A DNA stretch of 64,000 bases from Candidatus Berkelbacteria bacterium (GCA_029865605.1 JAOUGE010000001.1:19840-83839); one strand, 5' to 3'; positions 31,305 to 47,703 are shown, counted from the stretch's first letter. Program-made: numbers and translations. The notes: a model not told the origin generated them from the sequence alone.

Positions 31305-31342
31305 ATGGGCATCCCTCCTTTGGGACAACAGGCGAACGGGTA

Positions 31343-32136: not shown

Positions 32137-32212
32137 TATGGCATAAGAGGCATAAAATGTCAAGTATAGCATACATATAAAAGCATATGATAAACCCGTA
32201 AAATGATAAATA

Positions 32213-32241: not shown

Positions 32242-32261
32242 ATTAAGCAAATGAAAAGCAA

Positions 32262-33026
32262 ATGAAAAACAAAGAAAAATATATTGATTCTTTTATTAGC
32301 CTAGGCCTCAAAAAACAGGAGGCAGAGGTTTATTTTGCCCTTCTTCAGCTTGGACGATCTACAGTGGGAAAAATTAGCCGACTTTCAGGTGTACAGCGAA
32401 CTTTTATTTATGATATTTTGGACGATTTATCCATTAAAGGATTAGTTACTTCGATAGAATCGGAAGGAATTAAAAGATTTTCTCCTATTCCGATAGAACA
32501 GTTTAGAAAAAGACAACTTGCGAAATTGGAGAATTTTGAGGAAATTTTACCCGAATTGAAAGCTCTGATTAAGACGACTGGAGAACGTCCCAAAGTACAA
32601 TTTTTTGAAGGCATCGAAGGTTTTATTATTGCTCAAGACGACACTCTGAATATGCCTAGAGGCAGTGAGATTTGCGCTTACTATACAGGTGAAGGGCTCT
32701 ACGAGGAACATCCAGAAATTCCCACGCGCTATGTGGGGGAGAGAGTAAAAAGGAGAATAAGCGTCCGAGCTATTTCTACAGATACACCCGCTACTCTTAA
32801 ATGGACCCAGCAGGATAAAGAGCAACTGCGGGAGAGCCGGATTGTATCTGCGGACAAATTTCCCTTTGCTAACGAGATCAACATTTATGGTAATAAAATT
32901 AGTATCTTATCGCTTCAAGGAGAAATTTTGGCTGTTGTAATTGAATCAGAAAGCATTGCTAAGACCCAAAAGGCGATTTTTGAGCTGGCGTGGGAAGGCG
33001 CGGAAAAATACAGGACTAAAAAATAA
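32262..33026 (+). CDS. TrmB-family transcriptional regulator (N-terminal winged HTH plus C-terminal sensor-like domain)
   Basis: EAEVYFALLQLGRSTVGKISRLSGVQRTFIYDILDDLSIKGLV. Confidence 0.6.
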   Translation: MKNKEKYIDSFISLGLKKQEAEVYFALLQLGRSTVGKISRLSGVQRTFIYDILDDLSIKGLVTSIESEGIKRFSPIPIEQFRKRQLAKLENFEEILPELKALIKTTGERPKVQFFEGIEGFIIAQDDTLNMPRGSEICAYYTGEGLYEEHPEIPTRYVGERVKRRISVRAISTDTPATLKWTQQDKEQLRESRIVSADKFPFANEINIYGNKISILSLQGEILAVVIESESIAKTQKAIFELAWEGAEKYRTKK

Positions 33027-33047
33027 AAACAAAAGGGACCAGACCGG

Positions 33048-34760
33048 TTAAATCACACTTTTCTGATAGCAGGTTTCGCAGTACACTTTTTCGGTTCTAT
33101 CGGGGGCGTAGGTGGTTTCGAACTCGTTTTTGCATGGGCCGGAGTGGTCGTGGTCTGTCTCTTCGCACATACACTGCCTGTGCCACAGTTTGCGCGGGTT
33201 GCGCAGCGAGAATAGGCCTTTGAATCTTTCTTCCCAGTGTTTTTTCGGTATCGGGATAGAATTTGCCATATAAAAGGCTAATTCCTGCGGCATAATCTTA
33301 AAGGGTTTGCCCGTTGTCTCGCACTTTAATATTCCCTTGAGGAGCTTCTCTCTTTCCTCCTCGTTTTCAACATAATTTTTAATATCTTTCGGCTCATAAA
33401 AAGGCCCATCGTATTTGATGTCGTAGTCATTATCTTGCCATTTGCTGCCGAGCTTTTTTGCTTCGTCTTTCTCGAGCGGGTAATAATTCATTGCCACCGT
33501 TTCGTTGTAGCCGAAAGGGCTCATTGAAATCGGAAAAAATTCTCCCCACTCCCCACGCTCGATCATCTTCTCGATTATTTGAGGCACTAGCTTTTCGTAT
33601 CCTTCTTTTGTGTATTGCTTATTCAAGATGCAATATTCTTTATGGTTTCGAAGATCGATGCAGCCGAAACAGTTTGAGACGCTATTAAGACACTCAAAGG
33701 AATAATAAACGTTTTTAATGTCGAGACACGAAACTATAAAGGCACTATTATAATGCTCCTCTCCGCAAACCGATTGGTAGGTGAGCTCGTTAGTGGCAGA
33801 AATATTAATGTCTTGGCTGTCGCGCACTTTTATATCGTCGAAAACATACTTAGCATTTTCGGCGTCTTCTAAACTGAAAACGTACTTACAGTTTTTGCAA
33901 AATTTTATCTTATCGCCGAGCGAATTTTCGCAATTGTGCTGTTCGGTTGGTTTGACTGGTAAGGCAATCATCTTTTGCCTGATCTCGAGCAGTTTCCCCA
34001 AATTCCAATCTTTGAATTCTTTGACAAATTTTTCGAATTCTTCTTTTGTTTTCTGCTCGTTGAGGATGCAGTAACTCTTATTGCGCAGGTTTTTGCATCC
34101 AAAACAGTTGTTGCAGCCGATTAGGTTCTCGGAAAAATAGCACTCCGAGGTGTTGACGCAGTTGATTAAGAATTTTGAACGGTTTGATTTTCGGCAGTCG
34201 AGGCATCCATAGAGATACTCGCAGTCAATAACAAATAGGGAGTCAACGCAATCTTTCGCGCGATAAGCCCAATTGCAGTAATAACAGTTCTCGCAGTATC
34301 TTGAGGCAAAGCACATATAAGAGTTTTTGCTGTTGCCAAAATAGTTGCCGTATTCGGAGTTCTCGTTCTCTACCTGCACGGCGGCCATGCGAGGAACTTT
34401 TTTGAGAATTTCATTGACCTGTTCTAAAAACGGCCTTGTCGGGTTATAGTCCTGGCCGTAATCAGTCGCGTCCCATTTGTCAGACCACCAGCAATCATAG
34501 CAATAGACGTTATATTCCTTGTCCGGCGAGTAGATGCTGATAATGTCTTTCTGGCAGGAGTTGCATTTTCTCTTATAGAGCTTCTGCTCGTTTCTGAAGG
34601 CGAGCCGATTTTGCTCGCGGCAATGGGGACACAAATTGGGCGGGGGAATGTCAAAAGTTTTTCCACCAAAAACAGGGGAGATTTTTTTGTAAAAGGCCAG
34701 ATCAGTGTCTGTTATCTCGAATTTAGCGCTGCAAACTTTGCAGGTTTTTGTAATTGCCAT
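33048..34760 (-). CDS. cysteine-rich protein (570 aa, >50 Cys). N-terminal paired CxxC zinc-ribbon-like motifs, repeated C-x2-C-x2-C-x8-C modules, internally duplicated ~50-aa unit
   Basis: CKVC...CPHC, CNSC...CYDC, CENCYYCNWAYRAKDC, CNNCFGCKNLRNKSYC. Duplicated NCFGC..LRN...YCILN.Q.TKE.EK.V units. Confidence 0.6.
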   Translation of the reverse strand: MAITKTCKVCSAKFEITDTDLAFYKKISPVFGGKTFDIPPPNLCPHCREQNRLAFRNEQKLYKRKCNSCQKDIISIYSPDKEYNVYCYDCWWSDKWDATDYGQDYNPTRPFLEQVNEILKKVPRMAAVQVENENSEYGNYFGNSKNSYMCFASRYCENCYYCNWAYRAKDCVDSLFVIDCEYLYGCLDCRKSNRSKFLINCVNTSECYFSENLIGCNNCFGCKNLRNKSYCILNEQKTKEEFEKFVKEFKDWNLGKLLEIRQKMIALPVKPTEQHNCENSLGDKIKFCKNCKYVFSLEDAENAKYVFDDIKVRDSQDINISATNELTYQSVCGEEHYNSAFIVSCLDIKNVYYSFECLNSVSNCFGCIDLRNHKEYCILNKQYTKEGYEKLVPQIIEKMIERGEWGEFFPISMSPFGYNETVAMNYYPLEKDEAKKLGSKWQDNDYDIKYDGPFYEPKDIKNYVENEEEREKLLKGILKCETTGKPFKIMPQELAFYMANSIPIPKKHWEERFKGLFSLRNPRKLWHRQCMCEETDHDHSGPCKNEFETTYAPDRTEKVYCETCYQKSVI

Positions 34761-34853
34761 AATAATTTTGTTTAAATATTAATCCATATAATAACCTAAA
34801 TCAATCATATGTCAAAGTGTTGACACAGTTCGACAACAATATAGAATAGAAAC

Positions 34854-35591
34854 ATGGAAATTTTGAGCGAGAAAGAAAAGAAGGTTTTGAGCGGGTTATA
34901 TGAGCTCTCAAGAGCGACGGTTTGGGATTTAAGTAAAGAGGTTGGGATAAATCGAACTACGCTCTACCCTATTTTGGAGAAACTGCTCGAGCGGGGTTTA
35001 GTTTCGAAATTGTCGGTTGAGGGACACACGGTTTATGAGCCGATTTTATACAAAGATTTTAAGCGATGGATTAGCCGCGAGAGAAAAAAAGCAAAAGATG
35101 CGGCGAATGATCTTCTCAGGTGGGTTGATGCACAAGAAAAAAATAGCGCGCCGGCGCTTTTATCTGATTTTAAATATTTTGAGGGGCACGGCGGGGTTGA
35201 GGCGCTTTATGCTGATAGCTGGCGAGAAAATAAGGGCAAAATTATCTATTGCATAACAGATTATAAAGCGGCCCTCACGACGATGGGAGATTTTTTTAAC
35301 AACGAATATTTTCCTGATCGGGTTTCTCGCGGCGTGTGCGTCAAAAACCTAGTGCCGGAGTCGGCTCTCGGCCGCAGCGAGCTAAAACGCAAAAAAGAAC
35401 TTCTGCGCGAGGTGAAATTTATTGATATTTTTGAGGATTTGGGGATCGAAGTAAATATCTATGACGATAAGATCTCCATCGTTGCTTATGATAAAAAGTT
35501 GCCCTCGGGCGTTTTAATTAAAAATGCGAAGATAGCAGAGGCATTGAGGAAAATATTCGAGTATTTGTGGAGAGAGAATAAGCGGAGTTAA
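34854..35591 (+). CDS. TrmB-family transcriptional regulator, second paralog
   Basis: KKVLSGLYELSRATVWDLSKEVGINRTTLYPILEKLLERGLV. Confidence 0.6.
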   Translation: MEILSEKEKKVLSGLYELSRATVWDLSKEVGINRTTLYPILEKLLERGLVSKLSVEGHTVYEPILYKDFKRWISRERKKAKDAANDLLRWVDAQEKNSAPALLSDFKYFEGHGGVEALYADSWRENKGKIIYCITDYKAALTTMGDFFNNEYFPDRVSRGVCVKNLVPESALGRSELKRKKELLREVKFIDIFEDLGIEVNIYDDKISIVAYDKKLPSGVLIKNAKIAEALRKIFEYLWRENKRS

Positions 35592-35863
35592 TCTAGAACA
35601 ATTTTTATCGCTTTGCCTTCAATGATTGCTCTGGAAATTTTACGGTAGGCAGAATGTAAGATGCGCTGAAAAGTGCTTTGGGAAATTTTCATTTTTTTTG
35701 CCGCTTCGATCTGATCCAGATTTTCAATGTTTTTCAACCTTATTGCTTCAGCTTCGTCGGCTGAAATTTCAATAATATCCAAAAAACGCAAAGGGATACC
35801 TTGCGGCTTAAAAAAATAAGCATTGTGCTTAAATCTGATAAATCGGCATTTTCTTGGTCTCAT
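35588..35863 (-). CDS. DUF134/UPF0251-family predicted DNA-binding protein
   Basis: MRPRKCRFI...FKPQGIP...EISADEAEAIRLKNIENLDQIEAAKKMKISQSTFQRILHSAYRKISRAI matches the family consensus. Confidence 0.7.
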   Translation of the reverse strand: MRPRKCRFIRFKHNAYFFKPQGIPLRFLDIIEISADEAEAIRLKNIENLDQIEAAKKMKISQSTFQRILHSAYRKISRAIIEGKAIKIVLD

Positions 35864-35931
35864 TTTTTGTTATAATCTTAGTGCGGGGTGCCCCGACTTC
35901 CGACGTAACAGTCGGAATGTCGGGGCGCCTT

Positions 35932-36183
35932 TTAGTTGCTTTTCAGCTCGTCAACTCTCTCGCGGACAGCCTTGAGATCCGCCTCAAGATCTTTTGCTTC
36001 ATCTTTAAGGCTTTCTAGCTCCTCGGATCGAGTCAAGTACATCCTTGGGCTATTTCCCGCTTGGCCCCAAATCCAGGGACAGGAGCGACCAAAGCCACGC
36101 CTGAATCCCGCGCCGCAGGGGCCGAGGCCTCGGCCAGTCCCCGCGCCCATTCCCATAGGGCCAGTTCCATCAAATCTTGGCAT
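35932..36183 (-). CDS. DUF5320-family small protein (from internal ATG: MPRFDGTGPMGMGAGTGRGLGPCGAG... with C-terminal coiled coil)
   Basis: MPRxDGTGPMGMG signature. The ORF-track N-terminal extension is AT-rich junk. Typical DUF134 neighbour. Confidence 0.6.
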   Translation of the reverse strand: MPRFDGTGPMGMGAGTGRGLGPCGAGFRRGFGRSCPWIWGQAGNSPRMYLTRSEELESLKDEAKDLEADLKAVRERVDELKSN

Positions 36184-36330
36184 TTCGTTCACCCCCGATC
36201 TTAATTTAGCTTGTATTATGAATATATATGCAAAATGGGGATTTGTCAAGAGGGTACTTCTCGCAGACGTTAGAAATGACATATTGGAGAAATTGTTTGA
36301 GAAATTGCTCAAACCTGTTAGGATTACCTT

Positions 36331-36906
36331 GTGCAACAGGCTTTTATTATTTTAAGTAGTGTTTCGATCTTGGCGGCTTATTTTATTTATGAGTGGTCAA
36401 TTGTAACAGGGAGAACGCGCCCTCATCGGACGACTAGATTTGTTATTTTTATCGTTGCGGCGCTTGGCGCAACGTCGCTTTTTGCCGGACAGGATCGGGT
36501 GGCAGTTTGGCTTTTGGGAATTTGCGCCATCCAATCGCTAGTTGTCTTTCTCATGTCGTTTAAATGGGGGATGGGCGGTTGGGCCAAGACGGATATTTTG
36601 TGTCTGGCGATTGCTCTTTTGGGGATTATTGTATGGCAGCTGACGGACAATCCCGCCCTTGGCCTTTATGCTGCGATCACGGCTGATTTTGCCGGGATGG
36701 TACCGGCGTTGATTAAGACTTATCGCCTGCCTCACACCGAGTATTGGCTTTCTTACATCTTTGATGTTGTAGCGGCTGGATTTACGCTTCTGGCGATCCA
36801 AAAGTGGGAGCTGCAGGGTTTTTCTTACCCGCTTTATATCCTAGTTATTAATATTGTGATGTTGATTTTGATTTTTCGTCCCAAACTTCTTCCCAAACCC
36901 GCCTGA
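36331..36906 (+). CDS. small polytopic membrane protein (6 TM), unknown transporter-like
   Basis: Hydropathy; Trp-rich helices. Confidence 0.4.
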   Translation: MQQAFIILSSVSILAAYFIYEWSIVTGRTRPHRTTRFVIFIVAALGATSLFAGQDRVAVWLLGICAIQSLVVFLMSFKWGMGGWAKTDILCLAIALLGIIVWQLTDNPALGLYAAITADFAGMVPALIKTYRLPHTEYWLSYIFDVVAAGFTLLAIQKWELQGFSYPLYILVINIVMLILIFRPKLLPKPA

Positions 36907-36918
36907 ACCTGATATTAT

Positions 36919-37626
36919 TTGCCTGTCGTAGAACCCTACAGGAAGGAGGCCGGCGAGATGCGGCCTTACATCAACGACTTGCTTTGCTCGCTGAAAGGTA
37001 GCTGGGTGGGTAAGATCGTTGCGTGCGTGTTGTATCCGCTGATGTATTGGCCGTTATTCGTCGGCCAGTATGTCAATGCGCTGATCTGTGAGCGTTTGGT
37101 GAACGCGTGGCCGCGGATCGGCGGGGTTGGGCTGTACAAGACCGCAGCAGAGTTGACGCGCGAGTTGGTCGCAAATGGACGTTTCACGACAGTCGTTCTC
37201 GGCGGCAACGAGGCCGAGCAGAAGCAGTTCCTAGCTGAATACCGGCCGGAATGGCTCACGAGTCTTGATGTATCGGATGGGACGTACCCCCAGGTGAGAG
37301 GGGTCGTCGATTACGCCGAGCAGTATGGCTTGCCTGCGATCTGTATTATCACGCACGAATCGCTTCTAACCAGAGCGGCTCTGACCGTGGTGAAACAGCT
37401 CAAAGAACGCGAGATGCGTCTGCCGGTATACTGCGAGGCGTACCTCGATCTATCTCGGCTTGAGCTGAAGTGGTATGAGGTAACGCTGGCCTCGGCGAAT
37501 GAAGCCTTGAGCCTCTTGCGCTATCAGAGGAGAGGCCACGTTGCCACGCATCGAGAAACGCTGGAGTATCTCCGGGACGTCTCCTGGGAGGAACGGCCGG
37601 GAGGAGTCCTGTTTGTCATCGTGTAG
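36919..37626 (+). CDS. hypothetical protein in a high-GC islet; weak resemblance to DUF218/YdcF-like
   Basis: TTVVLGGNEAEQ ... ICIITHESLLTRAAL. About 60% GC. Followed by a GC-rich terminator hairpin at 37642-37675. Confidence 0.3.
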   Translation: MPVVEPYRKEAGEMRPYINDLLCSLKGSWVGKIVACVLYPLMYWPLFVGQYVNALICERLVNAWPRIGGVGLYKTAAELTRELVANGRFTTVVLGGNEAEQKQFLAEYRPEWLTSLDVSDGTYPQVRGVVDYAEQYGLPAICIITHESLLTRAALTVVKQLKEREMRLPVYCEAYLDLSRLELKWYEVTLASANEALSLLRYQRRGHVATHRETLEYLRDVSWEERPGGVLFVIV

Positions 37627-37687
37627 AGTCAGCGATACCCACGGGCGGGAAAGGGGGCCGCCCGATGTATTTATAAAAAGGATTGAA

Positions 37688-38779
37688 ATGTCATTGTCAA
37701 TCGGTATTGTTGGGCTTCCGAACGTTGGAAAATCAACGCTTTTTAATGCACTTTTGAAGTCACCTCTGGCGCGGGTGGCGAATTTTGCTTTTACAACGGT
37801 TGAACCGAATATCGGGGTGGTCGAGGTGCCGGATGAGCGGGTAGAAAAATTGGCCGAAGTGGAAGGAAGCGCTAAAGTCACACCGGCGACAGTGAGGTTT
37901 GTTGACATTGCGGGATTAATTGCCGGAGCGCATAGAGGCGAGGGATTGGGGAACAAGTTTTTGGCCCATATCCGTGAGGTTGATGCGATCGCGATGGTGG
38001 TGAGGACTTTTGAGCATAAGGATGTTGCTCATGTTTCGGGCAAGATCTCGCCTAAAGATGATATCGAGACGATTTTGACCGAGCTCGTGTTGGCCGATAT
38101 GGAAACTTTGCAAAAGAGACTAGGCGTGGCCGAAAAAGATGCTAAATCGGGTGACAAGACCGCTCGAAAACAAGCTGAAATTTACAAAAGAATTGCTGCA
38201 ATGTTTGACAAGAATAAACCGGCGATTGAGGCAAAGCTTGATGACAAGGAGAGAGAATTGATCGGCGAGTCCGGTTTTCTAACTTTAAAACCATTTTTAT
38301 ATGTTTTTAACGTCGGCGAGGAGGGGGCAACACAGGCGCCGGAGGATTTAGTGGAGGAGTATGAGCTTGAGGTAAAATCAGAGCAGGTGGTGGTGATTTC
38401 GGCGAAAATCGAGTCGGAGCTCTCTGACTTGTGCGAGGGGGACCGCTGCGAATATTTAAAAGAATTGGGGCTTGATGAGCCGTCTTTAAACAAACTAATT
38501 CGCTCTGCCTATAAAACCCTCGGGCTAGTTTCATTTTTCGTCGTCAATCAAAATGAGGCGCGAGCCGAAACGGTAAGAGATGGTGCCACGACACCCGTGG
38601 CGGCGGGCAAGATTCACAGCGATTTTGAGGACAAATTTATTAAAGCGGAAGTGACGCGAGCGGATGATTTTATAAAATATGGCGGCTGGAAAGGGGCACA
38701 TGAAGCTGGCCGAACTCGTTTTGAGGGCAAGGACTCTGTGGTACAAGAAGGGGACGTGATGTTTTTCCACCATAGGTAG
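37688..38779 (+). CDS. ychF: ribosome-binding ATPase YchF (Obg-family GTPase)
   Basis: MSLSIGIVGLPNVGKSTLFNAL at the internal ATG 37688; TGS-like C-terminus. Confidence 0.85.
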   Translation: MSLSIGIVGLPNVGKSTLFNALLKSPLARVANFAFTTVEPNIGVVEVPDERVEKLAEVEGSAKVTPATVRFVDIAGLIAGAHRGEGLGNKFLAHIREVDAIAMVVRTFEHKDVAHVSGKISPKDDIETILTELVLADMETLQKRLGVAEKDAKSGDKTARKQAEIYKRIAAMFDKNKPAIEAKLDDKERELIGESGFLTLKPFLYVFNVGEEGATQAPEDLVEEYELEVKSEQVVVISAKIESELSDLCEGDRCEYLKELGLDEPSLNKLIRSAYKTLGLVSFFVVNQNEARAETVRDGATTPVAAGKIHSDFEDKFIKAEVTRADDFIKYGGWKGAHEAGRTRFEGKDSVVQEGDVMFFHHR

Positions 38780-38824
38780 CTTATAAATTGGTTACGGGCG
38801 CCCCCTGTGGGGCGCCCGCGTGAG

Positions 38825-39178
38825 CTATCGCTGTCTTCGGGAAGGAGCATCGTTAGGGGCACCTTTGTAGCGGTGGGCCCGGACGAACTCCCGAAACTGG
38901 ACAGGGCGGAAGTGGCCGGTGAAGGCCACAACCGCTTCGACGGCGGCGAGGGCGAGGCACCAAGCCGCGACGATCCACATCCGGCCACCTTCTGTTGCCA
39001 TCGCGATGCCCAGTGGCACCGAGACGAGGAGGCCGATTGTCGCGAGCCAGGCGAGGTTTACTCGCCAGCACTCTAGCTGGTAGCCGACCGTGTTAACGTG
39101 CATGTCGCTCATCCTCTGCAGTGATACCCTGGTCTTGCCGGGGTCCGTCTGTAAAAGAACAACGGTTAAATATACCAT
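38825..39178 (-). CDS. small hypothetical membrane protein in a 65% GC island
   Basis: Two hydrophobic helices; start uncertain; weak call. Confidence 0.25.
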   Translation of the reverse strand: MVYLTVVLLQTDPGKTRVSLQRMSDMHVNTVGYQLECWRVNLAWLATIGLLVSVPLGIAMATEGGRMWIVAAWCLALAAVEAVVAFTGHFRPVQFREFVRAHRYKGAPNDAPSRRQR

Positions 39179-39299
39179 ATCTGAACCTGATTGTCAATGC
39201 GTTGACACCTGTTTTTTCAGGCAGTATGATTAAACTATGAGTCTAGGAGTATGGTTGACTGCTCCTAGGCCAGCTCCTTTCTGGAAGGGGGATGGTCGT

Positions 39300-39890
39300 A
39301 TGCGCACGATGTGTCGCGGACCTTCGTTGATGCTGGTGGCGTTGCTCGTTCTGGCGTTGGCAGCGTTCGCAGTGGGAGCGGCTGGCTGCTCGACCGCGAA
39401 GGCCGACAAGATGACGGCGACAGCGGCTCCAACGATCTTCACGGCAACAGTGGGCATCGACGACGACATCGGTGGGCAGTCCATCTTCACGCAGACGGTA
39501 GCCGCGCGCGGCCCAACCCGAGACGCGGCCGCGGCGCAGACCCTCACCGGCATGATCGCCCAGAAGACGGCCACCACTGACCGCGTGGCGAACGTGGCGA
39601 TCAAGACGATGGACCCGAAGATCGGTGACATCAGTGTCGGGCAGTACCGCCTCCTGGCGGCGGCGTACAACGGTAGCATCGTGGACAACAAAGTGGCGAC
39701 GGCCATGCGCGGCAGCCCAGGCATCGTGGCTTCCCCGACGGCAACCGCCAACGACATCACCGGCAACCGCACGAACGCGGACACGGTGGCACAGACGCTC
39801 TCTCCCCAAGGAGGTCGGCAGGTCCACAAAGTCCTTGTGGCCAACTACCTCGGCACCGGGGGCGCCGGTTGCCAGAAGACCCGCTGCTAA
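39300..39890 (+). CDS. lipoprotein (signal peptide with AAGC lipobox), Ala/Thr-rich, in a 65% GC island
   Basis: ATG at 39300 with RBS ggaaggggga. MRTMCRGPSLMLVALLVLALAAFAVGAAGCS. Terminator hairpin at 39977-40030. Confidence 0.4.
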   Translation: MRTMCRGPSLMLVALLVLALAAFAVGAAGCSTAKADKMTATAAPTIFTATVGIDDDIGGQSIFTQTVAARGPTRDAAAAQTLTGMIAQKTATTDRVANVAIKTMDPKIGDISVGQYRLLAAAYNGSIVDNKVATAMRGSPGIVASPTATANDITGNRTNADTVAQTLSPQGGRQVHKVLVANYLGTGGAGCQKTRC

Positions 39891-39976
39891 CGACGAAGCG
39901 GCGGGGGGGCAACGGCCCCCAAGACATCCTGGTCGAGTTGGGCCCCTCTGGCCAGCTCGGCCTCGCACTCATACCC

Positions 39977-40030
39977 GGGCGCGGACCCCTTTGTGGGACC
40001 GCGCCCGTTCGCGTTTAATTAGCTTTAATT
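39977..40030 (+). terminator. GC-rich hairpin (gggcgcggaccc/gggaccgcgccc) plus T-rich tract
   Basis: Seen in sequence; marks the 3' end of the high-GC island. Confidence 0.5.
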
Positions 40031-40083
40031 TTGTGCTAAAATTAAAAAAGAGAAATCCTAATTTGAGTTGAAGGAGGTTTTAG

Positions 40084-40869
40084 GTGATTGTTACTCCCCA
40101 AGCTGGACAGGGTGCTCCGCCAGGGCCCGAAAGCGCTGTCTCACCAGCTCCTGCTGAAGCACCTCCTGCCCCTGCCGTGCCTCCCGTTCCGGAGGCAATA
40201 CCTCCGGCTCCACCGGTTGTGGGGCAAGCTCCACCGGTGGCTGAAGTGGCGCCTGACCTGTCAGCTATTCTAGAAGCTCCTCAAGTGACTGCTCCGGCGG
40301 CAGCGCCGGCGGGCGAAGCGGCTCCTCCACCTCCTGTTGCTCCGCCGCCGACAGAAGAATTGATTGAAAACCCTTCGCAGCCTGGAGCTCTTGAGGGGTT
40401 AGAAACGGCAGTTGCTGCTCCTCCCATTCCGGCTGATCAAGGCAATATCGGTGAAACCGCGGCGGCTGATGTTGTGGCAGCCGCAGAGCCAACTGCTCCC
40501 TCAATTCCTACACCCGATCAAGCTCCGGTGATTGACGCAGCGGGGGTCGCTCCGGCAGCTCAAACCGAAACCGCTCCATCAGCCCCGGCTGGCCTCTCGG
40601 AAATGCCTGCAACGACACCTCCCCCCGAAGCCGTTGCTCCCCCCGTATCTGAACCTGCCGCTCCAGTCGCGCCAGAACCGATTGTTACACCCCCCGCGTC
40701 TGAACCCGTTATAGGTTCAATTAGTCCAGAAGTAGCCAGACCCGTTGAGCAATTGACTGATGAGGAATTGCAGGGACAAGCTGTAGGTGGTCATTTAGCG
40801 CTTGATGAACTGGCGAGGAGAAGAGCTGAAAGGGGCGCAGAACAAAATATAACCCGGGAGGCGGCATAA
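40084..40869 (+). CDS. proline/alanine-rich low-complexity protein (261 aa)
   Basis: GTG start with RBS gaaggagg; PAPAEAPPAPAVPPVP composition. Confidence 0.4.
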   Translation: MIVTPQAGQGAPPGPESAVSPAPAEAPPAPAVPPVPEAIPPAPPVVGQAPPVAEVAPDLSAILEAPQVTAPAAAPAGEAAPPPPVAPPPTEELIENPSQPGALEGLETAVAAPPIPADQGNIGETAAADVVAAAEPTAPSIPTPDQAPVIDAAGVAPAAQTETAPSAPAGLSEMPATTPPPEAVAPPVSEPAAPVAPEPIVTPPASEPVIGSISPEVARPVEQLTDEELQGQAVGGHLALDELARRRAERGAEQNITREAA

Positions 40870-41519
40870 TGGCATCACTTGACGTTTTATATCTAATCTT
40901 GGGGGTTTGCGTTGTTGTTATCACCGTAACGATTGTTTGGCTTGCCAGCGAAACAAGACAGCTAGTGCGCTCACTTAAACGCTCGGCTCAGGATACCGAA
41001 GTTGTAACCAAGGAAATAAAGGAGAAGGTTCTGCTGGTCGGCGAGGCGCTTGATCGGGCTGGAACGGCTGCTACGACCGTCATTGGTCTGATTGAGGATG
41101 CGATTGAGCAAATCGAAGAAAAGCGCGACCAGATTGTCGGCTCAATTGGTCTTCTGACCGGTGCTGGAAAGTACGTAAAACAGCGTCGCGAAGGGGCAAA
41201 AAAGGAAAAAGCAGAAGCAGGAAAAGAGAAAAAAGAAGTTCCGAGAGCGGAGGTTAAAGAGAAGCCTAAGGAATTGGAGAAGAAAGAAATTAAAAACGAA
41301 GAAGTAGAAACCCCCGAGCCGATTAGCGAGAAGAAGAATATGGGTTCATTTGTCCTTGGTCAGAAAAAAGTGGAAACATCCCCGCCTATGCAAGCTCGTG
41401 ATGATGAAGAGTCAAAGAAAACCAAGACAGAGAATAAGCCGGACGCATCTCGACTCTCGCCTCGGTTCGAGTCGAAGCGGGTCGGTAAAGACGAGGCAGA
41501 AGAGTTAGATAAGAAATAA
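40869..41519 (+). CDS. N-terminally anchored coiled-coil protein with Lys/Glu-rich tail
   Basis: TM helix LYLILGVCVVVITVTIVWLA; the C-terminus carries one copy of a 30-nt repeat also present at 439-468. Confidence 0.45.
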   Translation: MASLDVLYLILGVCVVVITVTIVWLASETRQLVRSLKRSAQDTEVVTKEIKEKVLLVGEALDRAGTAATTVIGLIEDAIEQIEEKRDQIVGSIGLLTGAGKYVKQRREGAKKEKAEAGKEKKEVPRAEVKEKPKELEKKEIKNEEVETPEPISEKKNMGSFVLGQKKVETSPPMQARDDEESKKTKTENKPDASRLSPRFESKRVGKDEAEELDKK

Positions 41520-41526
41520 ACCAACC

Positions 41527-42306
41527 ATGAAGCGAAAACTTAGCGCAAGGAGATGGCTGGTTTTTTTGTTGGTTTTACTCGCTCTTTTGGCGGTAGCATT
41601 TTTTATTACGAAATATTATCTCTCACAAGATGCGGTGACCGAGAGAGAGAAGGCAAAGCTGCCGACTCTGTCGGCAGGTCAGTCTCCGGTCTCTAGCGTC
41701 CAGTCTCCAACCGCCAACCCATCTCCATCAATAAATTCCATACCAGAGGAATTGAATTTAGATGTACCGTTTACTCCACAGGCACCGCACGCTAATTGGG
41801 ATTATACCCACGAGGAGGCCTGCGAGGAGGCGGCAGTTTTGATGGCCGGGAGATATTTCAGGGGGCAAGGAATTTCTGGGGCCGATGACGCGGAAAAGGG
41901 ATTGCAGGAAATTATCGGCTGGGAAAAAGAGAACTTGGGATTTTTCGAGTCGACTACAGCCGAAGAAACAGTCAGGGTTATAAAAGGAATTTATGGCTTG
42001 AATGCGCAGGTCATTGAAAATCCGACAGTTGGGCAGACGAAGGTGGCATTGGCGCAGGGAAAATTGGTATTGAGTCCATCAGCCGGCCGGGAAATCGGCA
42101 ACCCATTTTATAAAAGTCCGGGGCCCCTATATCATATACTTTTAATCAAGGGCTATACGAAGGACAAATTTATCACCAACGATGCTGGGACGAAAAGAGG
42201 AGAGAACTATCCTTATGTTTTTAAAACGGTGCTTGACGCCAACCACGACTGGAATGGTGGGAATGTGGGAGACGGTCGCAAACTGATGATTGTTGTTTCG
42301 CGCTAG
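41527..42306 (+). CDS. N-terminally anchored papain-like peptidase, C39-like (Peptidase_C39_2/BtrH-like) domain
   Basis: YTHEEACEEAAVLMAGRYF (Cys) and PLYHILLIKGYT (His) spaced as in C39-like peptidases. Confidence 0.5.
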   Translation: MKRKLSARRWLVFLLVLLALLAVAFFITKYYLSQDAVTEREKAKLPTLSAGQSPVSSVQSPTANPSPSINSIPEELNLDVPFTPQAPHANWDYTHEEACEEAAVLMAGRYFRGQGISGADDAEKGLQEIIGWEKENLGFFESTTAEETVRVIKGIYGLNAQVIENPTVGQTKVALAQGKLVLSPSAGREIGNPFYKSPGPLYHILLIKGYTKDKFITNDAGTKRGENYPYVFKTVLDANHDWNGGNVGDGRKLMIVVSR

Positions 42307-42437
42307 CCTACTCAAATCCGAGACGGTTCGCACTTAGTACAGATTGACAAAGAGGGCTCTTTATGGTTCAATTTAGGCATCTCGTTGCCACGGATGAAGC
42401 ATAAACTACACTACCCGTAAGGGAGGGAGGGACTGCC

Positions 42438-42647
42438 GTGGGAGAAAGCTGTATGTGCAGCGTCGCAGAAGGCCCTACTGGGGTTGTCATTAGGTCGCTT
42501 GCCAGACAGGGTCGCCAGCAGCACTGCAAGACCGGAGACCGGAACGGCCACGAGCCCGAGCACTTTGGCAACCCCTACTCGGCGAAGGAGTGTGCCGAGG
42601 TAGGTTGCCCGAACAGGGCAGAGTGTGGAGGTAACGGCTCCGGATAA
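42438..42647 (+). CDS. small cysteine-rich ORF (69 aa) with GTG start and a strong RBS; coding status uncertain
   Basis: ggagggagg 7 nt upstream of GTG. TTGACA at 42344-42349 is promoter-like. Six Cys; C-terminal CGGNGSG. Confidence 0.25.
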   Translation: MGESCMCSVAEGPTGVVIRSLARQGRQQHCKTGDRNGHEPEHFGNPYSAKECAEVGCPNRAECGGNGSG

Positions 42648-42823
42648 CGCACCAACGACAAGCTAACACGGGCAGCGAGATGCCAGGGGGACGCTCCCGC
42701 TCTGGGAGGGTAGCGGGTGCATTGTCCCGTCTTACCTATCGAGGGCGCCCCCCAACTTTTTGTAGAATCCCCCGCGAGGTGGATTTTTTTGTCCGCTTTT
42801 GGTAGGATTTCTTCGGTTAGCAA

Positions 42824-42855
42824 GGCCCTGTCGTCTAGTGGTTAGGACGCGAGGT
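42824..42855 (+). pseudogene. tRNA 5'-half fragment (acceptor, D-arm and 5' anticodon stem), 23 nt upstream of tRNA-Glu
   Basis: GGCCCTGTCGTCTAGTGGTTAGGACGCGAGGT aligns with tRNA-Glu positions 1-32 at 24 of 32 identities. No 3' half. Confidence 0.5.
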
Positions 42856-42878
42856 ACATTATAATAAATTCAATTGGG

Positions 42879-42953
42879 GGTCCCATCGTCTAGTGGTCAG
42901 GACGCAAGGTTCTCATCCTTGTAACGGGAGTTCGACTCTCCCTGGGATCACCA
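42879..42953 (+). tRNA. tRNA-Glu (anticodon CTC), CCA encoded
   Basis: Manual fold: acceptor GGTCCCA/TGGGATC, D-stem GTCT/GGAC, anticodon stem CAAGG/CCTTG with loop TTCTCAT, T-arm GGGAG-TTCGACT-CTCCC. Confidence 0.85.
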
Positions 42954-43087
42954 TAGTGGATTTATCAAAAGAATTAGCTTTTTGTTTTGAACACTTTGAT
43001 ATTGACTTTTTAAGATAAAAAGGGAAAATACAAGGCGATTTTCGCACCTCGATAGAGAGCAAGACTACTAGGGAGGAGGATGGAGCG

Positions 43088-43738
43088 ATGTTGCAGCTCA
43101 TAGCTGTGTTTGTCGTAGCAGCTCTGGCTGGACCCTCGCTATCCGTTCCCCGCTTGCCAGAGACATCCGGCAAGCCCTGCGCATGCACTAGTAGCGCTCC
43201 CCTTGCCGCGACTGCGGCGCGAATCCCAGCTATTTCTCCGGGCAAAGAACCTCAACTGGTTCTCGCCCGACCTGCCGCAGAATTGGCAGAACCCCTGCCG
43301 CTCTCGCTCCAGGCGCTTGTGGAGAGGATTGAGGGAGATCCGAATGCGCCGGAGTGGAAGAGGACTGTCACCCAGCGGATTCGCGCTCGCCGGATAGGAC
43401 GCTTTGACGCGTATCTAACGGCGTACTGCACGGACTCCTCCGCCGACTCGACGGGTGGAGGGCCGTGCGCCGCTTGGGACGGTATCCCACTTCGCTGGGG
43501 GCACGCCGCCAGCGACTGGCGGCATGTCCCAAAAGGCACAGTCCTCTTCGTCGGGCCGCCCGTTGACGCGATCTTGATCGTTGTCGACAACGGCCCGGGC
43601 GTTAAGGGCCCAGGCCGGCTTGATATATGCACGACAGACGGAAGCGTTTACAGGCTGCTGAGCCGGCAGATTAGTGCTGGTCAGCCCGCGGCCTGTTGGC
43701 GCCTTGGACGAAAAACGACATCAGCGGAAGCGCGCTAG
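43088..43738 (+). CDS. secreted 3D-domain protein (MltA/RlpA-like double-psi beta-barrel), ~62% GC
   Basis: YLTAYCTDSSADSTGGGPCAAWDGIPLRWGHAASDWRHVPKGTVLFVGP ... GRLDICT matches the 3D domain pattern. Confidence 0.5.
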   Translation: MLQLIAVFVVAALAGPSLSVPRLPETSGKPCACTSSAPLAATAARIPAISPGKEPQLVLARPAAELAEPLPLSLQALVERIEGDPNAPEWKRTVTQRIRARRIGRFDAYLTAYCTDSSADSTGGGPCAAWDGIPLRWGHAASDWRHVPKGTVLFVGPPVDAILIVVDNGPGVKGPGRLDICTTDGSVYRLLSRQISAGQPAACWRLGRKTTSAEAR

Positions 43739-43848
43739 CGCTTCCGCGATCGAGGTGTGATGACCTGTGGCCGCCCTTGATTTCGCCCACGGGCGGAATC
43801 GGGGCGGCCACTATGACGTTAAATTGCTTTGATTTATAACCTCAAGAC

Positions 43849-44547
43849 GTGATAAGATTTCGACGTATGGCAAAAAAAGAAATTGTTATTAAAGCAAAAG
43901 ATTTGCAAAAAACCTACCGTCTCGGTAGGCGAAATTATGTTAATGCCTTAAATGGCGTTGATTTTGAGCTGGAAAAGAGTGATTTTGTTGCTCTAGTTGG
44001 TCCTTCGGGATCGGGTAAATCAACTTTTATGCACCTTGTTGGCCTTTTGCAGGCACCATCGGCTGGGAAAATTTGGATTAAAGGCGAGGAAATGACCAAG
44101 GTATCAAAAAGATCTTATCCGCGTTTTCGGGCCGAACATATCGGTTTTGTTTTTCAGGGTTTTAACTTAATCCCGACTTTAACTGCTAAAGAAAATGTAA
44201 TGCTTTCCGGCCGCTACGCCGGCATGAGCCATCGCTTAGCCAGAGATCATGCTGAAGAGCTTTTGGCTAAGTTTGGCCTTCAAGATAGAATGAATCACAA
44301 ACCGGATGAACTTTCCGGCGGTCAGCAGCAACGAGTTGCCATTGCTCGGGCCTTGATCAACAGTCCGGCGATAATCCTTGCCGATGAGCCGACAGGGGAA
44401 CTTGACAGTAAAACTTCAAGGGAGGTTGTGGAGATGTTGAAAGAGCTTAATAGCTCAGGCCAGACGATTTTGATTGTTACCCACAATACCGAGGTGGCAA
44501 AAATGGCAAAAAAGATTGTAGAAATGAAGGATGGCAGGATCGTATGA
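43849..44547 (+). CDS. ABC transporter ATP-binding protein (MacB/LolD-type)
   Basis: GPSGSGKST, LSGGQQQRVAIARAL, ILADEPTGELD. Confidence 0.85.
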   Translation: MIRFRRMAKKEIVIKAKDLQKTYRLGRRNYVNALNGVDFELEKSDFVALVGPSGSGKSTFMHLVGLLQAPSAGKIWIKGEEMTKVSKRSYPRFRAEHIGFVFQGFNLIPTLTAKENVMLSGRYAGMSHRLARDHAEELLAKFGLQDRMNHKPDELSGGQQQRVAIARALINSPAIILADEPTGELDSKTSREVVEMLKELNSSGQTILIVTHNTEVAKMAKKIVEMKDGRIV

Positions 44548-45776
44548 TTTTTATCTGGCTAATTAAAGAAGCTTTTGTTTCGCTCTGGCGGCATAAACTG
44601 CGCTCCTTTTTCGCTGTGGTAGGGGTGATGGTGGGAATCGCGGCGGTGATCGCTTTAGTTTCAATCGGCAAAGGGGTCGAGAAAGACGTCAAAAAGACCG
44701 TTGAGGGTGTGGGAACGAATTTGATCGTTGTTTTATCCGGCAAGATTGATACCTCGCAAAGTAATTTTAATCAGAGTGCAATGGGCAATCCGGCCAACTT
44801 TATTTCTGGCGATATATTAAAACGCCAGGATGCCGACGAGATCGCAAAAGTTGAAGGGGTAAAGGCGGTTGCACCGATTGCTCTGGCTTCGGGCAGCATA
44901 AGACGCGACGGCCAAACTTCGACCTCGATGATTATGGGAACTTATCCTCAGATAAAAGATGTTATGACTGGTTTTAGTATCAGGTACGGAAGGTTTTTGG
45001 ATGATTCTGATAGCAATAAACAAAATATTGTCGTTGGTGATTTTGTAAAAGAACAGCTTTTTGGAGATAAGGATAATATCGTTGGCGAGAAAGTAATGGT
45101 GGGCAAAGACGAATTTGAAATTATCGGCCAGCTTGAAAAACCCAAAGACGCTGGAGCGCTTTTTTCGTCAGACTACGAGTCAATTGCCATTATATCGATG
45201 GGCGAGGCAAAGCGTTTAAACGGCGGCGCAGACAAGATATTGAGGATCGCGGTATCGGCTAAAGACTCGACGGATGTTAGTGCAACGGTCGAGAGGATTA
45301 AGCAGAATATGCTTCTACGCCATAAGGACGACGAATTTTCGGTTTTAACGCAGGAAGATCTTTTGGATATGATTTCATCAATAATTAGTCTTTTGACAAC
45401 AGCAGTAACGGCAATCGCGGCGATATCTCTAATTGTTGGCGGAATCGGTATTTCCTCGGTAATGTTTATGTCTGTGGCTGATAGAACTAGGGAAATTGGC
45501 ATTAGGAAAGCGCTTGGCGCTACCAGCGTATTGATTATGTTTCAGTTTTTAGTTGAGTCGGTAGTTTTGGCGGTTTTGGGTGGTGCTTTGGGGCTGGTGC
45601 TGGCTTTGGCTGTCAACGAAGTTGTTGATGCCAAGACGGTTATTGAGCCAAGCGTTACGGTTTCGGTTGTAATTTTGGCTCTTGCTTTTTGTATGGGTGT
45701 GGGAGTTCTCTTTGGGCTTCTTCCCGCCGCGCGGGCGGCGATGAAAGATCCGGTCGAAGCTTTGCGTCAGGGTTAA
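44544..45776 (+). CDS. ABC transporter permease, FtsX/MacB-like with extracytoplasmic MacB_PCD-type domain
   Basis: N-terminal TM, large periplasmic domain, three C-terminal TM helices with the GIRKALGAT motif. Confidence 0.75.
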   Translation: MIFIWLIKEAFVSLWRHKLRSFFAVVGVMVGIAAVIALVSIGKGVEKDVKKTVEGVGTNLIVVLSGKIDTSQSNFNQSAMGNPANFISGDILKRQDADEIAKVEGVKAVAPIALASGSIRRDGQTSTSMIMGTYPQIKDVMTGFSIRYGRFLDDSDSNKQNIVVGDFVKEQLFGDKDNIVGEKVMVGKDEFEIIGQLEKPKDAGALFSSDYESIAIISMGEAKRLNGGADKILRIAVSAKDSTDVSATVERIKQNMLLRHKDDEFSVLTQEDLLDMISSIISLLTTAVTAIAAISLIVGGIGISSVMFMSVADRTREIGIRKALGATSVLIMFQFLVESVVLAVLGGALGLVLALAVNEVVDAKTVIEPSVTVSVVILALAFCMGVGVLFGLLPAARAAMKDPVEALRQG

Positions 45777-45824
45777 AGCGAAGATCCCGCTTTGCGGGGT
45801 CGAAGCCCTAAGACAGGGATAATA

Positions 45825-46364
45825 ATGAAATTAGGTAGAGCTTTTTTCGAGAGATTTACTTTAGATGTGGCAAGAGAGCTTTTGGGGAAGGTAATTGTCC
45901 GCAAAATAGGTAAAAAATTGATTAGAGCACGGATTGTTGAGACGGAGGCCTATTGCGGAGAGGAAGATCAGGCTTGCCATGCGCGCATAGGCCGTACCAA
46001 GAGAAACGAAGTGATGTACGGACCCGCCGGCCATGCCTATATTTATTTGTGTTATGGAATTCATGAGCTTTTGAATATTGTAACGCAAGAAAAGGGTTGC
46101 CCCGAGGCGGTGTTAATTAGAAAGGTCGAGCCGTTGACAAGAAGTAATTTAAAATCATACGGCCCAGGTAACTTAACCAGATACTTACAGATTACAAGAG
46201 CACTAAACAGTGAAGATTTGACCAAAAGTAAGGTTTTTTGGATTGAAGACGACGGTTTTATTGTAGAAAAATCTCAAATTAAGTCGGCCGAGCGGATTGG
46301 CGTTTCTTACGCCGGAAAATGGGCGAAGAAAAAGTGGCGGTTTTTGAATGGAGCAAAAACCTAA
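45825..46364 (+). CDS. mpg: DNA-3-methyladenine glycosylase (Mpg/AAG family)
   Basis: RIVETEAYCGEEDQACHA, GPAGHAYIYLCYGIHELLNIV. Confidence 0.75.
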   Translation: MKLGRAFFERFTLDVARELLGKVIVRKIGKKLIRARIVETEAYCGEEDQACHARIGRTKRNEVMYGPAGHAYIYLCYGIHELLNIVTQEKGCPEAVLIRKVEPLTRSNLKSYGPGNLTRYLQITRALNSEDLTKSKVFWIEDDGFIVEKSQIKSAERIGVSYAGKWAKKKWRFLNGAKT

Positions 46365-46406
46365 TCCGTAGTTGAACGAGACGGTTTCTTCTGATAAATT
46401 TGTTAT

Positions 46407-47687
46407 ATGAAGCTTTCCGAACTTTTCACTAAAACCAGCAAGCAAATGCCTTCTGATGAGCAGTCGGTCTCGGCTCAACTTTTAGAACGCGCCGGATATA
46501 TTAATAAGGAAGCAGCTGGCGTTTATTCGCTCTTGCCGCTCGGGCTTAGGGTCATAAATAATATTACGAACATTATTCGTCAAGAGATGGATGCGGTTGG
46601 TGGTCAGGAAATATTGATGTCTGGCTTAATTCCAAAATCAAATTTGGAACAGACCGGTCGCTGGGAAAGCTTTGAGGCATTGTACCGACTCAAGGGTGCA
46701 GATGACAAGGAATATGGCTTGGGGGCTACGCACGAGGAGATTATTTCTCCGCTAGTCAAAAAATACGTTCAATCCTATAGGGATCTGCCGGTCGCCATTT
46801 ATCAAATTCAAGACAAGTTTAGAAACGAAATCAGAGCTAAGTCAGGCGTTTTGCGCACTAGAGAATTTTTAATGAAAGATCTTTACTCGTTCCACGCGGA
46901 CCAGGAGGGTTTGGATAAATATTACGAGCAGGTTAAAGAAGCGTACTGGAAAATATTCGAGCGCTGCGTAATTAAAGATAAAACTTATTTGACCTTGGCT
47001 TCTGGCGGGACGTTCTCTAAGTATTCGCATGAGTTTCAAACTGAAACAGAGGCGGGCGAAGACGAAATTTATGTTTGTAAAAGCTGTCGGATTGGTTTGA
47101 ATAAAGAGATTTTAGAAGGGGAATATGAATGTCCGGAGTGCAAAAATCGCGAACATGAAGTTAAGAAAACCATTGAAGTTGGCAATATTTTCAAACTCGG
47201 AACAAAGTATTCTAAGCCGTTTGAGCTAAATTTTGTCGATCAATCGGGCAAGCCACAGCCGGTTATAATGGGCTGTTACGGTATAGGTCTGCAAAGATTG
47301 ATGGGAGCGATTGTTGAGGTTTATCACGATGAAAAGGGTATAGTCTGGCCAAACAATGAGATTGCGCCTTTTGTGGCGCATCTCATTGAGTTAAAAGTTG
47401 AAAGTGGTAGGCCAGCGGAGCTGGGGATGGAAGGGCCAAAGGGGAAGGGACAGAACACAGCAGATGAGATATATAATCAATTGCTAGAGGCAGGAATTGA
47501 GGTTTTATACGATGACCGTGAAGATATTTCCGCCGGCGAGAAATTTGCCGATGCTGATTTACTTGGTATTCCTTGCCGGCTAGTTATAAGTGAAAAAACA
47601 GGGGATAAAGTAGAAATAAAAAATAGAAGCAAAGACCAGACAGAGCTCGTTCCGAAAGAAGAATTGATTAGCAAACTTAGAACTTAG
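46407..47687 (+). CDS. proS: proline--tRNA ligase (short form without insertion/editing domain)
   Basis: Class II aaRS motifs; N-terminal SAQLLERAGYI...GVYSLLPLGLRV typical of ProRS; C-terminal anticodon-binding domain. Confidence 0.75.
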   Translation: MKLSELFTKTSKQMPSDEQSVSAQLLERAGYINKEAAGVYSLLPLGLRVINNITNIIRQEMDAVGGQEILMSGLIPKSNLEQTGRWESFEALYRLKGADDKEYGLGATHEEIISPLVKKYVQSYRDLPVAIYQIQDKFRNEIRAKSGVLRTREFLMKDLYSFHADQEGLDKYYEQVKEAYWKIFERCVIKDKTYLTLASGGTFSKYSHEFQTETEAGEDEIYVCKSCRIGLNKEILEGEYECPECKNREHEVKKTIEVGNIFKLGTKYSKPFELNFVDQSGKPQPVIMGCYGIGLQRLMGAIVEVYHDEKGIVWPNNEIAPFVAHLIELKVESGRPAELGMEGPKGKGQNTADEIYNQLLEAGIEVLYDDREDISAGEKFADADLLGIPCRLVISEKTGDKVEIKNRSKDQTELVPKEELISKLRT

Positions 47688-47703
47688 TGCTATTAACTCG
47701 AGG

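Follow-up and report, generated by a model that had tools for sequence, protein, structure and literature searches.

The described systems closest to the locus reported here are genomic islets and "morons," with which it shares an atypical composition, a patchy distribution, a position in gaps between core genes, adjacency to a tRNA gene, and a promoter and terminator of its own. Another point of comparison is the candidate phyla radiation (CPR), whose members have tiny genomes and mostly unknown hosts; Saccharibacteria are a CPR lineage with foreign genes of higher GC content. Gene transfer from the host to the epibiont is reported for this lineage (PMC7427843). Our own locus lies in a 64,000-nucleotide stretch of a Candidatus Berkelbacteria genome (GCA_029865605.1, JAOUGE010000001.1:19840-83839), referred to here as the window, in which four short GC-rich islets (36919-37680, 38795-40030, 42370-42800, and 43088-43810, numbered 1 to 4) are interleaved with native genes. 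We consider it probable that the islets arose by piecemeal and mostly old horizontal acquisition of accessory genes from a high-GC gene pool that would in part be of phage origin. As such, they are a new instance of a familiar event, namely, horizontal gene transfer of an ordinary sort. Three points are of modest interest: their undecayed GC content, a structured small-ORF RNA (ORF, open reading frame), and an odd tRNA-Glu locus.

The islets differ from genomic islets and morons in their length of only 0.4 to 1.2 kb, in their lack of an integrase, a transposase, and flanking repeats, in being mostly old yet unameliorated, and in having a CPR bacterium with a tiny genome as their recipient. Composition and patchiness agree with a classical tRNA-linked island or integrative element, but neither its integrase (at 36000-44500) nor its tRNA 3' repeat (at 42700-43950) was found. 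The difference from the Saccharibacteria case lies in the visible gene pool, which for the Berkelbacteria islets is phage-like and not a host chromosome. Foreign genes that act at the envelope are the likeliest place to find traces of the partners of CPR bacteria or of the phages that surround them.

The original prediction, made from the DNA alone, had placed four GC-rich stretches among native genes, and we found them at those positions, with a GC content of 0.56 to 0.69 in 200-nt windows versus ~0.40 to 0.50 around them (47% for the 64 kb overall). The excess is located at third codon positions, that is, at synonymous sites, as the GC content at these positions (GC3) of the individual ORFs makes clear:

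36919-37626, plus strand: islet-1 ORF, GC3 0.71
38825-39178, minus strand: islet-2a ORF, GC3 0.72
39237-39890, plus strand: islet-2b ORF, GC3 0.78
43088-43738, plus strand: islet-4 ORF, GC3 0.64
Native genes: GC3 0.40-0.55

Codon usage of the islet ORFs, which the original prediction had proposed to profile, is atypical, too, with z values of -2.5 to -5.6 on a score built from 34 native genes, whereas two control genes stay within range (a Pro/Ala-rich gene at 40084-40869, z -1.1, and a membrane-protein gene at 36331-36906, z +1.2). The amino acid make-up of the four islet proteins is of the high-GC type: their fraction of F+Y+M+I+N+K (FYMINK) is 0.12 to 0.21 versus 0.30 in native proteins, and their K/(K+R) ratio is 0.10 to 0.44 versus 0.61, showing that Arg is preferred over Lys. 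The Pro/Ala-rich gene at 40084-40869, which lies between the islets and reaches 60% GC, is native, since its GC sits in codon positions 1 and 2 (GC1 0.80, GC2 0.62, GC3 0.38). Long low-complexity proteins of this kind, rich in Pro, Ala, and Glu and with native codon usage, are also encoded at 637-3210, 3226-4023, and 52149-53030, where the GC likewise comes from codon positions 1 and 2. Such proteins make GC-rich stretches that can be mistaken for foreign DNA; GC3 cleanly separates the foreign envelope genes from them.

By exact protein look-ups, the window proteins are the NCBI entries MDH43583xx (locus tags OEV37_003xx) of a Candidatus Berkelbacteria metagenome-assembled genome, and the NCBI/JGI contig bearing the window is 123.5 kb long. 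Given that abrupt shifts in composition are the usual warning sign of a chimera, we considered, as the original prediction had, that assembly or binning mixed high-GC reads into the contig, and found no sign in support of this. A 113.4-kb ENA megahit contig (L002) is 100% identical to window positions 29751-48779 (~19 kb); a Logan contig of the separate run SRR22388041 (L001), which represents a sister strain with 96.5% identity, crosses the junctions between islet 1 and YchF exactly as in the window; and a diverged relative from a third run (L003, SRR22387764) carries all four islets at the same sites. Because of these three matches an assembly artefact is very unlikely, and we give it hardly any credence.

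The window and L003 are well separated, with protein identities of 67% for YchF, 74% for ProRS, and 61% for the purine DNA glycosylase, and with saturated synonymous sites in core genes (proportion of synonymous differences [pS], 0.72 to 0.85). The orthologues found at the same sites in L003 are those of the islet-1 gene (72% identity, GC3 0.73), of the islet-2 lipoprotein gene (~50% identity, GC3 0.84), and of the islet-4 gene (80% identity, GC3 0.64), and the islet-3 element is present as well; the 117-amino-acid (aa) minus-strand gene of islet 2 is missing from both L001 and L003. In five more distant loci (L015, L017, L019, L021, and L022), whose C39-like protein is 57 to 64% identical to that of the window, the core order of YchF, Pro/Ala-rich protein, coiled-coil protein, and C39-like peptidase is retained in 5/5 cases, a Pro/Ala-rich-type protein follows YchF with no gene called between them, and other genes lie upstream of YchF. 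Islets 1, 2, and 4 are absent from all five, and no 3D-domain gene was found in the 20 kb examined. Comparison with sister genomes, which the original prediction had proposed, therefore separates L003, with islets 1, 3, and 4 and the lipoprotein gene, from the distant relatives, which lack islets 1, 2, and 4 and bear GC-rich genes of their own in other gaps, unrelated to those of the window. When the GC-rich ORFs of nine loci (the window and eight related ones) were compared all against all, only orthologues matched. Among 5.8 billion proteins, the cluster counts were 4 for the islet-1 family and 6 for the islet-4 family versus at least 491 for the native C39-like protein.

The one islet whose relatives could be followed outside the clade is islet 4, with the following features:

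43002..43087, plus strand: promoter-like site and 5' leader of islet 4 (TTGACT, 16 nt, GAAAAT), highly conserved in L003 and in a further relative, L006
43088..43738, plus strand: islet-4 gene, encoding a secreted protein of 216 aa whose 3D domain (MltA/YuiC type), recognized by profile matches, is divergent

That this gene is real is supported by its ratio of nonsynonymous to synonymous substitution rates (dN/dS) of 0.23 versus L003, at a dS of 0.52. Neither the islet-4 protein alone (Pfam) nor six close homologues (PDB) gave a match, whereas a profile search of 1.84 billion representatives retrieved 54 relatives, and the 3D domain that had been predicted is borne out by them: PF06725 (3D) was matched by 36 of 57 aligned relatives (best E value, 7.5e-12), and the joint profile of the 57 sequences matched Bacillus subtilis YuiC (4wjt; E value, 4e-12) and MltA (E value, 4e-4). 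In YuiC, D162 is catalytic and T91 is the orienting threonine (PMC4499186). Residues T111, D143, D167, and D179 of the islet-4 protein align with T91, D129, D151, and D162 of YuiC; D167 and D179 are invariant and T111 occurs in at least 90% of the 57 sequences, while D143 is conserved in the close family and not in the full set. The protein thus resembles YuiC/Sps proteins and MltA (PMC4499186, PMC1084345) in its profile match and in keeping three Asp residues and the orienting Thr, and the SpsC group in consisting of a signal peptide and a minimal catalytic domain. It differs from YuiC and MltA in that it falls below Pfam detection on its own, has an extra N-terminal two-helix segment that contains a conserved P-x-W-K-R motif, and belongs to a subfamily found in metagenomes only, partly in phage contexts, whose activity is predicted. 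The N terminus looks like a signal peptide and is followed by a variable Pro-rich linker, and the AlphaFold2 (AF2) model, weak as it is (mean predicted local distance difference test [pLDDT], 56), has an order of strands and helices compatible with a double-psi beta-barrel. The product would be a secreted enzyme similar to lytic transglycosylases. Bdellovibrio employs a secreted MltA-like lytic transglycosylase in prey invasion (PMC10127604), and the likeness consists in a secreted MltA/3D-family enzyme in a bacterium living on bacteria. For islet 4, a possible role at a host cell wall is, by this analogy, a lead only.

The next relatives of the islet-4 protein (37 to 52% identity) are encoded at seven JGI loci of uniformly 61 to 69% GC, where the homologues have a GC3 of 0.76 to 0.88. 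One of them is a 42-kb IMG/VR viral contig (L008; IMGVR_UViG_3300024054_000030 is named as a related phage), which carries the 3D gene near genes for a RuvC-like resolvase, an M23 peptidase, a Cas4-like PD-(D/E)XK exonuclease, a Sak4-like protein, and a single-stranded DNA-binding protein; two others encode a phage-type DNA methyltransferase (L009) and a repressor-like regulator (L013). Since these relatives sit on contigs of 61 to 69% GC, the IMG/VR contig among them, the visible gene pool of islet 4 appears to be high in GC and at least partly viral, suggesting that at least one islet gene derives from a branch of the 3D-domain family that is high in GC and associated with phages. The actinobacterial origin put forward in the original prediction is unproven, given that the phage proteins of L008 are only 24 to 28% identical to those of phages of Pseudomonas, Mycobacterium, Gordonia, and others, i.e., of several unrelated hosts. 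Two pattern scans of GTDB species genomes found no relative of the 3D subfamily, and the islet proteins had no match among INPHARED phages and PLSDB plasmids. Taken singly, none of the islet proteins gave anything significant in Pfam, PHROGs, PADLOC, or NCBIfam; in PHROGs only islet 4 gave a weak match.

On the reading of piecemeal acquisition, each islet forms a small transcription unit of its own: a promoter of the sigma-70 type lies in an AT-rich leader, the body, coding or RNA, is rich in GC, and a GC stem-loop serves as the terminator. Each unit occupies a gap between conserved core genes. A high-GC pool would have supplied these units, and for islet 4, the sole visible case, it would include high-GC phages. 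Most islets would have been gained before the split from the L003 lineage and the 117-aa membrane gene later. The products would act at the envelope, as a 3D enzyme that may cut the glycan strands of peptidoglycan as YuiC and MltA do, a mosaic lipoprotein, a protein with two transmembrane (TM) helices, a membrane-anchored alpha/beta protein, and a Cys-containing peptide encoded on a folded RNA. The proposal of piecemeal high-GC acquisition thus holds as regards the separate insertions and the islet-4 relatives in high-GC DNA, while the actinobacterial source is unproven and the acquisition appears mostly old. Best matches of the same lineage and composition had been named as evidence against transfer, and the closest hits are indeed of this kind; they do not refute transfer, because the next-closest hits lie in high-GC DNA. 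Several observations nevertheless weigh against piecemeal acquisition: the donor pool is visible for one islet only, the others being without relatives outside the clade; the islet promoters are of the native type; the search for an integrase, direct repeats, or other traces of insertion came up empty; and transfer could in principle have run toward the high-GC relatives, making them recipients and not donors. To these is added the GC3 of islet 1, which has not drifted toward 0.48 despite near-saturated synonymous sites (window versus L003: pS 0.69, third-position identity 0.49, GC3 0.71 and 0.73) and is therefore not what old transfer followed by neutral amelioration would leave. Islet 4 and the lipoprotein gene (dS 0.52 and 0.60), in turn, are far less diverged from L003 than their flanks, pointing to either later exchange between lineages or constrained synonymous sites. 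Because of the undecayed islet-1 GC3 and these low dS values, a single old import with neutral decay is too simple an account. GC may instead have been kept up in place, through selection or biased conversion at recombining loci, or a high-GC pool may have been sampled repeatedly. To the standard view of amelioration, the undecayed GC of islet 1 poses a puzzle that is small but real.

It could also be that old lineage-specific genes became enriched in GC where they stand, through selection on mRNA or codons or through GC-biased gene conversion. The steady GC3 of islet 1 in two genomes fits this, as do the recombination-prone loci (mosaic lipoprotein alleles and strain indels beside islets 1 and 2) and the occurrence of GC-rich genes in variable gaps of every Berkelbacteria locus examined. 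We nevertheless consider it unlikely, though worth some weight: a GC3 shift of up to +0.30 with altered amino acids is, on general grounds, larger than would be expected of biased gene conversion, the islet-4 relatives in the outgroup lie in uniformly high-GC DNA, and native variable genes, such as that at 36331-36906, show no GC enrichment. That the islets are remnants of one prophage or integrative element, inserted at tRNA-Glu and subsequently fragmented, is improbable and, as far as the gene order tells, largely refuted, because the core genes that split the islets keep their order in relatives without them, requiring at least three insertion sites. The phage-related islet 4 does lie directly downstream of tRNA-Glu, beside a tRNA gene fragment, and small membrane proteins and lipoproteins, such as the pair in islet 2, are typical phage lysis or exclusion genes; but neither an integrase (at 36000-44500) nor an att-like copy of the 3' end of the tRNA (at 42700-43950) was found, the only PHROG match is the weak one of islet 4, and the islets differ in age. 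The original prediction had further raised a family of small hairpin-bounded cassettes, which would be mobile, and two of the GC hairpins indeed carry the exact 11-mer CCCACGGGCGG. With up to one mismatch, however, this 11-mer occurs 3 times versus 1.03 expected, a count equaled or exceeded in 9 of 100 shuffles; the ends of the islet-4 orthologues in L003, L004, and L005 lack it; islet ORFs and ends have no homology to each other within or between genomes and no common end motif; and equally GC-rich hairpins are found at native transcription units, e.g., at 19463-19488 and 47863-47887. A cassette family is thus very improbable and, at the sensitivity of these comparisons, refuted; the hairpins appear to be gene-specific terminators or stabilizers. 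All four islets do end in GC-rich stem-loops, as predicted:

37637..37665, plus strand: stem-loop 3' of islet 1, just upstream of YchF (CGGGCGG, 9-nt loop, CCGCCCG), kept in L003 and L001
38795..38818, no strand assigned: all-GC hairpin of 10 bp where the YchF gene and the 117-aa gene converge, a putative bidirectional terminator
39898-39925 and 39974-40007, plus strand: two GC-rich stem-loops 3' of the lipoprotein gene, in a 3' region 93% conserved in L001
42768-42795, plus strand: intrinsic terminator of islet 3
43724..43811, plus strand: two stem-loops at the end of islet 4, one (43724-43747) covering the stop codon and the other (43769-43811) being GTGGCCGCCC...GGGCGGCCAC; their structure, and not their sequence, is kept in L003, L004, and L005

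A broader idea, which we regard as speculative and quite unlikely, is that Berkelbacteria share a pool of persistently GC-rich accessory genes directed at the envelope (a wall-cutting enzyme, mosaic lipoproteins, small membrane proteins, and a structured small-ORF RNA). These would pass between lineages and stay out of compositional equilibrium by being drawn again and again from the DNA of a high-GC host or its phages, or by being selected to match it. If true, such islets would allow the host of an uncultivated CPR lineage to be approached from sequence.

With regard to the individual islets, islet 1 is a single-gene unit:

36888..36957, plus strand: promoter-like site and 5' leader of the islet-1 gene, from a promoter scan (TTCCCA, 17 nt, TATTAT at 36890-36918; GGAGG before ATG 36958)
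36958..37626, plus strand: islet-1 gene, 222-aa protein, GC3 0.71

The low dN/dS of 0.10 versus L003 supports a real gene. Its promoter, leader, and terminator hairpin are ~90 to 95% identical to those of L003, and there is hardly any difference in the ~70 nt that precede the ATG, while the synonymous sites of the gene itself are near saturation. In the AF2 model (pLDDT 61), hydrophobic helices at the N terminus are followed by an alpha/beta core resembling a Rossmann fold, suggesting that the product is a membrane-anchored alpha/beta protein. The DUF218-like (YdcF/SanA-like) assignment of the original prediction found no support: there was no Pfam match at E values up to 0.1, a profile search of PDB sequences gave only Pelota (E value, 0.36) and noise, and Foldseek with the AF2 model returned generic alpha/beta folds only, none of them at an E value of ≤0.001. 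Residues 73 to 112 match baeRF_family10 weakly (E value, 0.017; 15.8 bits versus a cutoff of 27.1), and the weak Pelota match (residues 68 to 152) overlaps this region, so that an affinity to baeRF/Pelota proteins is a lead only. Viral-contig scans found no relative of the islet-1 protein. The gene upstream (36254-36887, a 191-aa membrane protein of native GC) is missing in L001 between flanks of 96.5% identity, i.e., it is a strain-level indel adjoining islet 1. In L019, another Berkelbacteria genome, genes for a DNA methylase, an HNH endonuclease, a helix-turn-helix protein, and a large serine recombinase form a block (835-7391) in the gap preceding YchF, which suggests that the islet-1 site is an insertion hot spot.

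Islet 2 contains the divergently transcribed membrane protein and Ala/Thr-rich lipoprotein that had been predicted, on either side of a short spacer:

38825..39178, minus strand: islet-2a gene, small membrane protein with two predicted TM helices, 117-aa ORF, GC3 0.72
39169..39230, no strand assigned: AT-rich spacer of ~60 nt with two divergent promoter-like sites, each with 11/12 consensus positions
39300..39890, plus strand: islet-2b gene, Ala/Thr-rich lipoprotein with signal peptide and lipobox AAGC, GC3 0.78

The two spacer promoters read TTGACA, 17 nt, TATATT on the minus strand and TTGACA, 17 nt, TATGAT on the plus strand. The islet-2a protein probably starts at ATG 39106, which would make it 93 aa long; it forms a singleton cluster, occurs in this genome alone among those compared, and had no family match in Pfam, PHROGs, PADLOC, and NCBIfam and no relative in viral-contig scans. 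The lipobox of the lipoprotein, as read from the sequence, is ...AVGAAGC in the window and ...VALAGC in L001, whereas the signal peptide of the L003 homologue lacks the Cys there. The protein resembles the L001 allele in its first ~70 residues only and the L003 allele in its last ~80 only, and in L001 the gene has been replaced while its flanks are 96.5% identical. With a dN/dS of 0.85 versus L003, the gene is hypervariable and its alleles are mosaic, as would be expected of recombination among divergent surface-protein alleles. A profile of the lipoprotein found no match in the PDB.

Islet 3 was predicted to be mostly noncoding, and this is true in part, since a transcript with a predicted structure encloses a short ORF:

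42344..42372, plus strand: promoter-like site of islet 3 (TTGACA, 17 nt, TTCAAT)
42376..42795, plus strand: islet 3, predicted structured transcript of ~420 nt with a closing helix, a 3' hairpin domain, and a terminator
42453..42647, plus strand: 64-codon ORF for a hydrophilic, Cys-containing peptide, with a Shine-Dalgarno sequence in three lineages

An equivalent promoter-like site (TTGACT, 17 nt, TTAAAT) precedes the element in L003. In the predicted closing helix, 42376-42389 pairs with 42672-42685 over 14 bp (12 to 14 bp across four copies), and the copies in the window, L003, L006, and L017 all form the helix in their minimum free energy folds and in their centroid folds, with one compensatory G-C to A-U change and one insertion on both strands among the three lineages compared. 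The 3' hairpin domain (~42686-42760), shared among the copies, has a GGGG...CCCC closure and an inner hairpin with a GGGAGGG loop. RNAalifold gave poor consensus structures on MAFFT alignments, which are not structure aware, of the three lineages. The element is single copy in all sequence compared and 95% identical between L003 and L006, versus 85 to 86% in flanking genes. For the ORF the evidence is mixed: between the window and L017, pS is 0.78 and the proportion of nonsynonymous differences (pN) is 0.38, with the third codon position least conserved, in an alignment made at the protein level in the ORF frame, which favors coding; between L003 and L006 only 3 of 17 differences fall at codon position 3, which is no coding pattern and points to constraint on the RNA. 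No Rfam 15 family was matched at the gathering threshold or at E values up to 10 (window) and up to 5 (L003 and L017), ARAGORN found no tmRNA, and RNase P, tmRNA, signal recognition particle (SRP), and 6S RNA were rejected as identities after an unconvincing comparison by eye and unsupportive covariance models. We therefore describe islet 3 as a predicted structured small-ORF transcript, not described before, that is kept in three Berkelbacteria lineages. Fold-back mRNAs of small-protein genes are known from hok-type type I toxins, which islet 3 resembles in the long helix between its 5' and 3' parts, the enclosed short ORF, and the strong terminator. The likeness is structural only, given that the 64-aa product is hydrophilic and not a short hydrophobic membrane toxin.

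Between islets 3 and 4 lies the tRNA-Glu locus:

42824..42855, plus strand: 5' half of a tRNA-Glu gene, a fragment of a second gene
42879..42953, plus strand: complete tRNA-Glu(CUC)

The corresponding site in L006 (2283-2357) has a single intact tRNA-Glu(CUC). In the window (42824-42953), the 5' half of a tRNA of the L006 type is followed by a 23-nt AT-rich spacer and then by a different, complete tRNA-Glu(CUC), and in L003 (7791-8040) the 5' half is followed by the complete second tRNA, flanked by the 10-nt inverted repeats TAAATTCAAT and ATTGAATTTA, and then by the 3' half of the first tRNA, broken by 24 nt. This looks like the insertion of one tRNA-Glu gene into the anticodon loop of another, and the insertion is polymorphic among close relatives. 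An att-like repeat of the tRNA 3' part was found neither in the window at 42700-43950 nor in L003 at 7700-9000, and no integrase or recombinase ORF is present at 36000-44500. In L022 (6793-7464), and likewise in L023, a gene for a GIY-YIG endonuclease runs right up to a 5' fragment of tRNA-Glu, after which come a TAAATTC-type spacer and a complete tRNA-Glu. As this layout of fragment, spacer, and tRNA equals that of the window, it suggests an endonuclease-driven mobile element targeting this tRNA-Glu gene.

Further GC3-rich islets exist elsewhere in the window, making the four-islet cluster part of a contig-wide pattern. They encode a truncated membrane protein with a Pro-rich tail (12-413), a 122-aa ORF on the minus strand (~17050-17720), and a minus-strand two-gene operon with a promoter (TTGACA, 17 nt, CATAAT) and a terminator (~31245-32100), and none of their ORFs belongs to a family in Pfam, PHROGs, PADLOC, or NCBIfam. 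Unrelated GC-rich genes with a GC3 of 0.67 to 0.82 also lie in variable gaps of L015 (14750-16773), L017 (10865-11863), and L022 (5914-6282), several of them coding for small membrane proteins and reading in the opposite direction to the core genes. Genes for RNase P RNA, tmRNA, and SRP RNA were not detected in the 64 kb, while a minus-strand ORF at 19661-20029 resembles the RNase P protein, by eye only.

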